Part shown: one piece after another, positions 6,160 through 14,743 of the stretch | Position numbering within the stretch: position 1 is the stretch's first letter | Layout of the letters: each line of letters begins with the position of its first letter | Sequence record: NC_054902.1 | DNA: 64,000 bases | Strand: one strand, 5' to 3' | Origin: Enterobacteria phage Aplg8 | Program-made: the position numbers and the translations under genes | The notes under the pieces: model-generated | Database searches by the model: none | The model's input: the letters and a program-made list of their open reading frames with translations, nothing else | What the model was told of the DNA's origin: nothing

Positions 6160-6337
6160 CTAAACGAATAGGTTCATGAATGCCATATCCTTGAACAGAA
6201 ATTTCTGTCGTAGGATAAATTCCATCAATATCACCCATATTCCAGGCTTCATTAAATTGCTGTTCGCCTGAATTACTAAACCATTCTGCGAAAGCATTTA
6301 GCACATCTTTAGAACCTTCAATAATTATCTTTGCCAT
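6116..6337 (-). CDS. hypothetical protein (73 aa)
   Basis: ORF track. Confidence 0.5.
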   Translation of the reverse strand: MAKIIIEGSKDVLNAFAEWFSNSGEQQFNEAWNMGDIDGIYPTTEISVQGYGIHEPIRLVEYDLCTGEEVKYD

Positions 6338-13723: not shown

Positions 13724-13799
13724 TGGTCGAGGCAGTAGGGATCGAACCTACGACCTAGGACTTAGAAGGTCCTTGCTCTTCCTTCTGAGCTATGCCCCG
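13724..13799 (-). tRNA. tRNA-Arg (anticodon UCU)
   Basis: Hand-folded cloverleaf: acceptor CGGGGCA/TGCCTCG, anticodon loop CTTCTAA, T-loop TTCGATC, encoded CCA. Confidence 0.85.
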
Positions 13800-13803
13800 T
13801 AAT

Positions 13804-13879
13804 TGGGGTGACCGATGGGAGTCGAACCCATGACTACGAGAATCACAATCTCGAGTTCTACCAACTGAACTACGGCCAC
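13804..13879 (-). tRNA. tRNA-His (anticodon GUG)
   Basis: Cloverleaf: acceptor GTGGCCG/CGGTCAC, anticodon loop TTGTGAT, discriminator C73, CCA; -1 nucleotide is U not G. Confidence 0.8.
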
Positions 13880-13993
13880 ATTAATACCTACTCCAACAAT
13901 CAAGATGTCTTCACACGAAATTAAGAGAAGAGTGATCAGTTCAACCCCTATAATCGCGTCAAGTAGATATTAATGTGACAGTTGTCACAAATT

Positions 13994-14068
13994 TGGCGGA
14001 CGTGATAGGATTTGAACCTATAACCAATCGCTTAACAGGCGATCGCTCTGCCATTGAGCTACACATCC
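13994..14068 (-). tRNA. tRNA-Asn (anticodon GUU)
   Basis: Cloverleaf: acceptor GGATGTG/CACGTCC, anticodon loop CTGTTAA, T-loop TTCAAAT, CCA. Confidence 0.8.
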
Positions 14069-14072
14069 AAAT

Positions 14073-14159
14073 TGGTGGGGAGTGATGGAGTCGAACCACC
14101 CGAGTCGCAATGACAATGGATTTACAGTCCACACCGCTACCTCTACGGGATAACTCCCC
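14073..14159 (-). tRNA. tRNA-Tyr (anticodon GUA), type II
   Basis: 87 nt; acceptor GGGGAGT/ACTCCCC, anticodon loop CTGTAAA, long variable arm, CCA. Confidence 0.8.
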
Positions 14160-14171
14160 TAATTCATAATT

Positions 14172-14246
14172 TGGTGGCCCTGGGTGGAATTGAACCACCA
14201 TCTGGCGATTATGAGTCGCTTGCTTGAACCTTCCAGCTACAGGGCC
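14172..14246 (-). tRNA. tRNA with CAU anticodon (Ile2/Met; Ile in T4)
   Basis: Acceptor GGCCCTG/CAGGGCC, anticodon loop CTCATAA, T-loop TTCAATT, CCA. Confidence 0.8.
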
Positions 14247-14247
14247 T

Positions 14248-14323
14248 TGGTGCTGATTGACGGAATCAAACCGCCGACCTTCTCATTACAAGTGAGTTGC
14301 TCTACCTACTGAGCTAAATCAGC
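14248..14323 (-). tRNA. tRNA-Thr (anticodon UGU)
   Basis: Acceptor GCTGATT/AATCAGC, anticodon loop CTTGTAA, CCA. Confidence 0.85.
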
Positions 14324-14328
14324 AAAAC

Positions 14329-14418
14329 TGGCGGAGGCGATAGGATTTGAACCTATGAGTCGCCGGAGCGACTGCCGGTTTTCAAGACCGGTGCATTAAA
14401 CCACTCTGCCACGCCTCC
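14329..14418 (-). tRNA. tRNA-Ser (anticodon UGA), type II
   Basis: 90 nt; acceptor GGAGGCG/CGCCTCC, anticodon loop CTTGAAA, long variable arm, CCA. Confidence 0.85.
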
Positions 14419-14420
14419 AG

Positions 14421-14494
14421 TCTCCATACAAGGATTTGAACCTTGGACCTCCTGATCCCAAATCAGGCGCTCTACCAAACTGAGCTACACGGAG
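14421..14494 (-). tRNA. tRNA-Pro (anticodon UGG)
   Basis: Acceptor CTCCGTG/TATGGAG, anticodon loop TTTGGGA; no encoded CCA; 2 nt from tRNA-Ser (dimeric precursor as in T4). Confidence 0.85.
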
Positions 14495-14503
14495 TAATTA
14501 AAT

Positions 14504-14577
<74 letters not shown>

Positions 14578-14582
14578 AAATT

Positions 14583-14669
14583 TGGTGCGAGAAGTGGGAC
14601 TCGAACCCACAAGGAAATCATTCCGCAGCATTTTAAGTGCTGTGCCTTTACCAATTTGACCATTCTCGC
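14583..14669 (-). tRNA. tRNA-Leu (anticodon UAA), type II
   Basis: 87 nt; acceptor GCGAGAA/TTCTCGC, anticodon loop CTTAAAA, CCA. Confidence 0.85.
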
Positions 14670-14670
14670 G

Positions 14671-14743
14671 CTGGGAATAAAGGACTCGAACCTTTGCATC
14701 TAGCAGTCAAAGTGCTATGCCTTACCAACTTGGCTAATTCCCA
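14671..14743 (-). tRNA. tRNA-Gln (anticodon UUG)
   Basis: Acceptor TGGGAAT/ATTCCCA, anticodon loop CTTTGAC; no encoded CCA; 1 nt from tRNA-Leu (dimeric precursor as in T4). Confidence 0.85.

Follow-up and report, generated by a model that had tools for sequence, protein, structure and literature searches.

A conserved class of phage tRNA-His genes with U at position -1 and C73 includes the tRNA-His gene of Enterobacteria phage Aplg8

The tRNA-His gene of Enterobacteria phage Aplg8 encodes U at position -1, and this state is the mark of a conserved and widespread class of phage tRNA-His genes rather than the oddity of a single gene. The class is defined by U-1, C73, the acceptor pairs G1-C72, U2-A71 and G3-C70, a GUG anticodon and a location inside a phage tRNA cluster, all of which are displayed by the Aplg8 gene, and it accounts for about 44% of the cluster-borne tRNA-His genes in a sample drawn from IMG/VR. 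The sequence features of the gene, its conservation and covariation, the wide distribution of the class and the lack of a detectable Thg1-like gene in the window (the whole 64-kb stretch of record NC_054902.1 analysed here) lead us to propose, with moderate confidence, that the gene is a working member of this phage-type class, whose transcript would be cut by RNase P at the canonical site to give a G-1-less tRNA that is weakly charged with histidine.

ARAGORN places the gene on the minus strand at positions 13804-13879 as a 76-nt tRNA-His with the anticodon GTG, and Rfam RF00005 matches positions 13807-13879 through model positions 1-71 (65.1 bits, E 2.7e-13), the match ending at the discriminator. 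The minus-strand reading is ...GGTATTAA-T-GTGGCCGTAGTTCAGTTGGTAGAACTCGAGATTGTGATTCTCGTAGTCATGGGTTCGACTCCCATCGGTCAC-C-CCA-ATTA..., in which the gene runs from G1 at 13879 to A76, with the 3' CCA encoded at 13804-13806, the histidine identity element C73 as an unpaired discriminator at 13807 and the anticodon G34 U35 G36 (GUG), also called by ARAGORN, at 13844-13846. The acceptor stem GUGGCCG/CGGUCAC (5' and 3' strands) forms seven pairs including one G4-U69 wobble, the anticodon loop UUGUGAU is the same as that of E. coli tRNA-His, and the D loop AGUUGGUA comprises 8 nt as in E. coli. Position -1 (13880, minus strand), which is G in bacterial tRNA-His genes, is U in the transcript and is the nucleotide predicted to lie directly 5' of the RNase P cut; position -2 is A. 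A previous sequence-only reading of this DNA had described a tRNA-His without a genome-encoded G-1 and with C73, CCA and the acceptor stem GTGGCCG/CGGTCAC intact, and both descriptions are borne out by the sequence. When the 5' boundary was re-derived with tRNA predictors, ARAGORN and Rfam both put G1 at 13879, so that the span of 13804-13880 given in that reading contains the gene together with position -1, the latter lying outside the predicted mature tRNA. No eighth acceptor pair is present, a single-sequence thermodynamic fold leaving U-1 and the leader unpaired, and the minimum-free-energy fold of the single tRNA-His sequence differs from the cloverleaf. An acceptor register shifted by one base, with the G at 13879 read as G-1, was rejected, as neither U8-A9 nor the D arm would survive it and the tail would read C-CCCA; it is also contradicted by ARAGORN, by Rfam and by 36 diverse homologues, whose alignment keeps the stated register and shows compensatory changes.

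The gene lies within a cluster of 11 tRNAs spanning 1.02 kb (13724-14743, minus strand; ARAGORN and Rfam), with a transcription order of Gln, Leu, Gly, Pro, Ser, Thr, Met/Ile(CAU), Tyr, Asn, His and Arg. Three of these, Tyr(GUA), Asn(GUU) and His(GUG) (13804-14159, minus strand), which we take to be the tRNAs beyond the eight of T4, all carry G34-U35 and are of the queuosine family. On sequence grounds the window is assigned to Tequatrovirus; the cluster is 99.8% identical to that of Shigella phage Sf22 and 97-99% identical to those of dozens of Escherichia, Shigella and Citrobacter T4-like phages. The spacer between tRNA-Asn and tRNA-His is 114 nt long (13880-13993), and beyond position -1 the rest of it (13881-13993, minus strand) constitutes the 5' leader of pre-tRNA-His. 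No sigma-70-like promoter was found on the minus strand of this spacer; thus tRNA-His is probably co-transcribed with the other members of the polycistronic T4-type tRNA cluster, and a promoter of its own starting at G1 was rejected. Flanking genes were likewise rejected as tRNA-modifying enzymes, the five flanking ORFs having no Pfam match and belonging to PHROGs of unknown function. The start of the Asn-His spacer, directly 3' of tRNA-Asn, holds a perfect hairpin, TGTGACA-AC-TGTCACA (13974-13989, minus strand), which may be a processing or structural element. Within the cluster, tRNA-Pro (14420-14494, minus strand) and tRNA-Gln (14670-14743, minus strand) are without an encoded CCA, which the other nine tRNAs possess, and tRNA-Gln adjoins tRNA-Leu with zero spacer. 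tRNA-Tyr (14073-14159, minus strand) scores 30.2 bits against the Rfam tRNA model, for which the threshold is 29, and the other ten tRNAs score 59-74 bits. The acceptor of tRNA-Arg(UCU) (13724-13799, minus strand) is composed of C1-G72, G2-C71, a G3-U70 wobble, G4-C69 and A73, which is the E. coli alanine acceptor identity set except for pair 1:72 (set from a table in PMC9976931). The CGGGG/CCUCG acceptor with G3-U70 also occurs in T5 tRNA-Arg and, on the T4-like side, in one further phage and a 225-kb contig, and a dual Arg/Ala identity of tRNA-Arg(UCU) is possible.

Conservation of the U-1 state extends from near-identical genomes to unrelated phage groups. At least 16 Tequatrovirus records match the 111 nt comprising the gene and its flanks at 100% identity, and 186 records match them at 99% or more. 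T occupies position -1 in 14 of the 14 T4-like loci examined, and distant T4-like phages (Klebsiella, Enterobacter and Pectobacterium types, contigs of 221-225 kb and Kosakonia phage 305) have diverged stems, yet all retain T at -1, C73 and the GUG/CAC acceptor top. U-1 together with C73 was also found in Vequintavirinae (rV5-like; Klebsiella VLCpiM5a and Enterobacter F5M1E), in mycobacteriophage Spud (Bixzunavirus, Bxz1-like), in T5, in another Tequintavirus and in cyanophage S-CRM01. A literature search found no paper on a phage tRNA-His class without G-1, older subscription literature lying outside this search, so that prior notice is possible.

The frequency of the class was determined in IMG/VR with a search pattern made up of the anticodon loop, the T loop and the following tRNA only, hence blind to the 5' end, and with the tRNA-His boundaries of ARAGORN; additional U-1-class examples, found with a pattern limited to tRNA-His with a 9-nt D loop, were kept out of the frequencies. 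The base at -1 in 102 cluster-borne tRNA-His genes is G in 54, T in 45, C in 3 and A in none. These correspond to 83 unique sequences (46 G, 35 T, 2 C) and, at 85% identity, to 60 groups, of which 32 are G-only, 26 T-only and 2 C-only, with none mixed. The other tRNAs of the same loci (n=1241) have T at -1 in 62%, A in 21%, C in 14% and G in 2.8%. Since G-1 occurs in only 2.8% of these 1241 cluster tRNAs, a base other than G at -1 is what base composition would lead one to expect, and the missing G-1 matters because tRNA-His elsewhere keeps it, as observed in all of the approximately 65 host-like tRNA-His genes found in viral contigs. Host-like lone genes of this kind probably lie at prophage borders, and the tRNA-His of the Acinetobacter Pro-Arg-His-Pro operon also carries G-1. 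The preference for T among the non-G groups is pronounced (26 of 28 vs 61% expected; p = 2e-4). The -1 state can flip between close relatives, as in locus L108 (U-1) and locus L175 (G-1), which are 91% identical, and in L187 (G-1) and L189 (U-1), which are homologous loci with the same 3' flank. CCA is encoded in 16 of 35 U-1-class genes vs 37 of 46 G-1-class genes (Fisher p = 0.002). A hampering of CCA addition by an encoded G-1 is unsupported as the cause of this difference, and the yeast CCA-adding enzyme takes tRNA-His with or without G-1 (PMC6470698). One contig, IMGVR_UViG_3300020160_002689 (L129), holds three tRNAs with a GTG anticodon, one of the U-1 class and two with G-1 and G37, and one of these two contains a long insertion.

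The alignment of 36 diverse U-1-class sequences describes one cloverleaf in which 97.6% of cells are paired. Double changes are found in 18 of the 21 pairs, the observed values are reached by none of 500 shuffles, and pairing drops to about 40% when the partner columns are slid. Among 62 unique U-1-class genes the near-fixed elements are G1-C72 (60/62), U2-A71 (59/62), G3-C70 (61/62) and C73 (58/62), and the top three acceptor pairs and C73 are near-invariant in the G-1 class too; in the U-1 class, acceptor pairs 4-7 co-vary without such restriction, as do the remaining stems. Among E. coli tRNAs C73 is known only from tRNA-His, and its retention indicates that HisRS recognition is still under selection. 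Judged from the alignments, in which the GUG anticodon is conserved as well, the U-1 class shows the pattern expected where HisRS recognition and decoding are still under selection.

The phage gene displays features of a canonical bacterial tRNA-His as represented by E. coli hisR, including GUG in the same 7-nt loop of a cloverleaf, C73, the pairs G1-C72, U2-A71 and G3-C70, an 8-nt D loop and the CCA end. The two genes are 80.3% identical, and a matching tRNA-His at approximately 80% identity is contained in 5426 of 5426 E. coli genomes. In contrast, the 5' region of hisR is GTAGT-G-GTGGCTA, i.e. U-2 G-1, which rules out a host that itself lacks G-1. RNase P cuts the hisR transcript at the unusual site -2/-1 and so leaves in place a G-1 that pairs with C73, whereas the phage gene has A at -2 and T at -1, making an eighth pair impossible. 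The lack of an encoded G-1 is shared with the alphaproteobacterial type of Caulobacter crescentus (PMC3064791), as is, presumably, use as a histidine tRNA. That type combines A73, G1-U72 and a 9-nt D loop containing U20a with a co-evolved HisRS that ignores G-1 (PMC3064791), whereas the phage tRNA-His combines C73, G1-C72 and an 8-nt D loop with a host HisRS that would be canonical and G-1-dependent. An alphaproteobacterial-type identity was thus ruled out by C73 and C72, three of its four tested features being absent from the phage gene. The closest relatives infect Escherichia, Shigella and Citrobacter, whose HisRS is taken as canonical from the literature. Similarly, G-1 is not gene-encoded in the Thg1-dependent tRNA-His of eukaryotes and some archaea, the archaeal cases also having C73, although those systems possess a G-1-adding enzyme and none is detectable in the 64-kb window. 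A further likeness is found in the tRNA-His of Acanthamoeba and Trypanosoma and in that of C. elegans mitochondria, which is functional without a -1 nucleotide (PMC9976931); the C. elegans HisRS prefers G-1 and tolerates its absence, the anticodon taking the lead (PMC9976931). In contrast to these eukaryotic or organellar systems, which have their own adapted or tolerant HisRS, the phage genes depend on a bacterial synthetase that is not adapted to them.

The longest-known member of the U-1/C73 class is the tRNA-His of T5 (NC_005859, T5t07). It resembles the Aplg8 gene in U-1, C73, CCA, the GUG/CAC top and its location in a tRNA cluster, and differs in belonging to another phage family, in its D arm, which is unusual (UCAU/AUGA) and encloses a D loop of 9 nt, and in a record that includes U-1. 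The RefSeq feature (6207-6284) extends one nucleotide further 5' than the ARAGORN call, whereas the RefSeq boundaries of the other 21 T5 tRNAs called by ARAGORN match exactly, and this hints at a different mature 5' end. In the annotation, T5 stable RNA III stops at the base adjoining tRNA-His. According to the RefSeq record, a CUA-anticodon version of this U-1-type tRNA-His is an effective amber suppressor, and T5 tRNA-His species appear in a review table drawn from older T5 tRNA papers, which reportedly found them by aminoacylation. No accessible paper discussing the U-1 of T5 tRNA-His was found in the literature search.

The identity of the mature 5' end depends on how the precursor is cut. 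In E. coli the G-1:C73 pair and U-2 shift the RNase P cut to -2/-1, and C73 is a negative determinant for the canonical site (PMC5499578). The flank A-3 U-2 G-1 is 87-89% conserved in the phage G-1 class (U-2 in 87%), position -2 of the U-1 class is C in 45%, A in 29% and T in 13%, and in both classes a U lies directly 5' of the G at the predicted cut. In the Aplg8 precursor, host RNase P would cut the canonical -1/+1 site (U-1|G+1), there being no -1:73 pair to move the cut. By published RNase P rules U-1 would be the preferred base 5' of the scissile bond and would probably offset the C73 penalty, and it may have been selected to secure the canonical cut despite C73; the mature tRNA would then begin at pG1, without a -1 nucleotide. 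Retention of U-1 through cleavage between -2 and -1 by RNase P or another nuclease is unlikely. It would yield a 77-nt tRNA with a U-1·C73 mismatch and a 5'-phosphate where HisRS expects one, partly replacing G-1, a role compatible with a G-1 base that mainly positions the 5'-phosphate through largely non-specific base contacts (PMC9976931, PMC4357726). The -1:73 pair is, however, the feature that redirects bacterial RNase P (PMC5499578), and it is missing here; such a cut would moreover fall 5' of U instead of G, behind a -2 position at which only 13% of the class have U, compared with 62-87% U in front of real cuts. U-1 being stricter than the background speaks for retention, as does the T5 annotation that counts U-1, although this annotation may rest on analogy only. 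Relative to the canonical cut that is favoured here, post-transcriptional addition of G-1 opposite C73, by a 3'-5' polymerase (Thg1-like) or another enzyme, is very improbable. C73 would suit as a template, bacterial and archaeal Thg1-like proteins being described as adding nucleotides in a template-dependent manner, and a tblastn search of a phage collection recovered Thg1-like genes in 131-164 phage records. Neither the 64-kb window nor 2.1 Mb of related loci, however, yielded a Thg1-like gene by tblastn with six phage Thg1-like proteins and yeast Thg1 or by an HMM made from these seven sequences, the yeast query having been validated against Pfam (PF04446, 173 bits; PF14413, 130 bits). The Thg1-bearing phages comprise jumbo, Bacillus, Caulobacter, Brevundimonas, Aeromonas and Vibrio phages, Lak megaphages and Omegavirus mycobacteriophages of about 110 kb. 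Escherichia is outside the ten most frequent names among them (E up to 1-10), the tenth having 4 records, and can thus account for at most 3, in a collection that contains hundreds of Tequatrovirus genomes and in which 519 Escherichia records matched the tRNA cluster alone. Mycobacterium contributes 11 Thg1 records, and those listed are all Omegavirus of about 110 kb, not Bixzunavirus. To our knowledge, E. coli has no Thg1 homologue. Phage XacN1 carries a Thg1 gene alongside a tRNA-His in which G-1 is already encoded, so the two features are not obviously coupled, and the role of phage Thg1-like proteins, mentioned only in passing in genome papers, may be 5'-end repair rather than G-1 supply. 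A phage Thg1 was rejected as the source of G-1 here, being present in other phages and undetected in the window, and the suggestion of the sequence-only reading that G-1 might be added loses ground on the same observation and on the absence of Escherichia from the ten most frequent Thg1 names.

A tRNA beginning at pG1 would be charged by host HisRS through the remaining C73 and GUG anticodon, by in vitro rules probably far less efficiently than the host tRNA-His, and once charged would decode CAU/CAC during infection. The absence of G-1 costs E. coli HisRS more than 100-fold in efficiency in vitro (PMC3064791, PMC5499578), and the absence of the G-1 5'-phosphate 510-fold (PMC4357726). The poor charging by host HisRS that had been anticipated from the sequence agrees with this enzymology (PMC3064791, PMC5499578, PMC4357726). 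Functional charging is an assumption because of this more than 100-fold loss and because a single T to G change at -1, which would restore G-1, was not seen in the T4-like family. Loss of G-1 in yeast is reportedly bypassed by overexpressing tRNA-His and HisRS. Total inactivity is opposed by the conservation of the class, the T5 CUA amber suppressor note and the T5 entry in the review table. That the gene is decaying or mis-predicted, a pseudogene or an annotation artefact, is scarcely credible: a near-universal identity element is missing and the minimum-free-energy fold is not a cloverleaf, but two independent predictors agree on the gene, it is conserved with its flanks throughout Tequatrovirus as described above, and covariation across diverse phages is strong. 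A tRNA that is largely uncharged and not mainly a translation substrate, serving instead as a regulator or as a decoy or sponge for a nuclease or toxin directed at tRNA-His, is quite unlikely. It would fit the poor charging that is predicted (PMC3064791, PMC5499578), but a mere decoy would not need C73, G1-C72, U2-A71 and G3-C70, which are kept as in the G-1 class. Phage tRNAs are documented against tRNA nucleases, e.g. T5 tRNA-Lys, tRNA-Thr and tRNA-Asn against PARIS AriB, which also gave probable minor cleavage products with tRNA-His(GUG) and cleaved tRNA-Asn too, and screens of phage tRNA-Tyr, tRNA-Lys and tRNA-Thr likewise document nuclease counter-measures; documented rescue tRNAs, however, act by charging and decoding, and the T5 homologue suppresses in vivo. 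The Tyr, Asn and His tRNAs are three of the four substrates of colicin E5, which lends the G34-U35 shared by the tRNAs additional to those of T4 some weight on the decoy side. The anticodon loop equals that of the host, with 2 of the 5 anticodon-stem pairs differing (28:42 and 29:41). The decoy or nuclease-resistant role that had been put forward from the sequence thus found no specific support, the loop being identical to that of the host and the HisRS identity marks being conserved in 62 members, and a weakly histidylated, decoding tRNA is the reading preferred here.

Textbooks give G-1 as the major identity element of tRNA-His, and the known exceptions have a co-evolved or tolerant synthetase or Thg1. 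In contrast, a large and selectively maintained phage class without G-1 must depend on the canonical HisRS of its hosts. If bacterial HisRS charges a G-1-less tRNA usefully in vivo, the identity rule would have to be revised, with consequences for the engineering of orthogonal pairs. The question is directly testable, as model phages (T5 and T4 relatives) and the E. coli enzymes exist. It is suggested, tentatively and as a proposal with the weight of probability against it, that phages have evolved a second widespread solution to histidine identity that works with an unadapted canonical HisRS, in which G-1 is dropped, C73 is kept and U-1 forces the canonical RNase P cut. Were this true, 35 years of in vitro work would have overstated how essential G-1 is in living bacteria, the G-1-less state would be positively selected, and the phage tRNA-His might escape host control or a host factor or toxin that reads the G-1:C73 end. 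If the U-1-class tRNAs act instead outside ordinary decoding, they would represent a new role for phage tRNAs.
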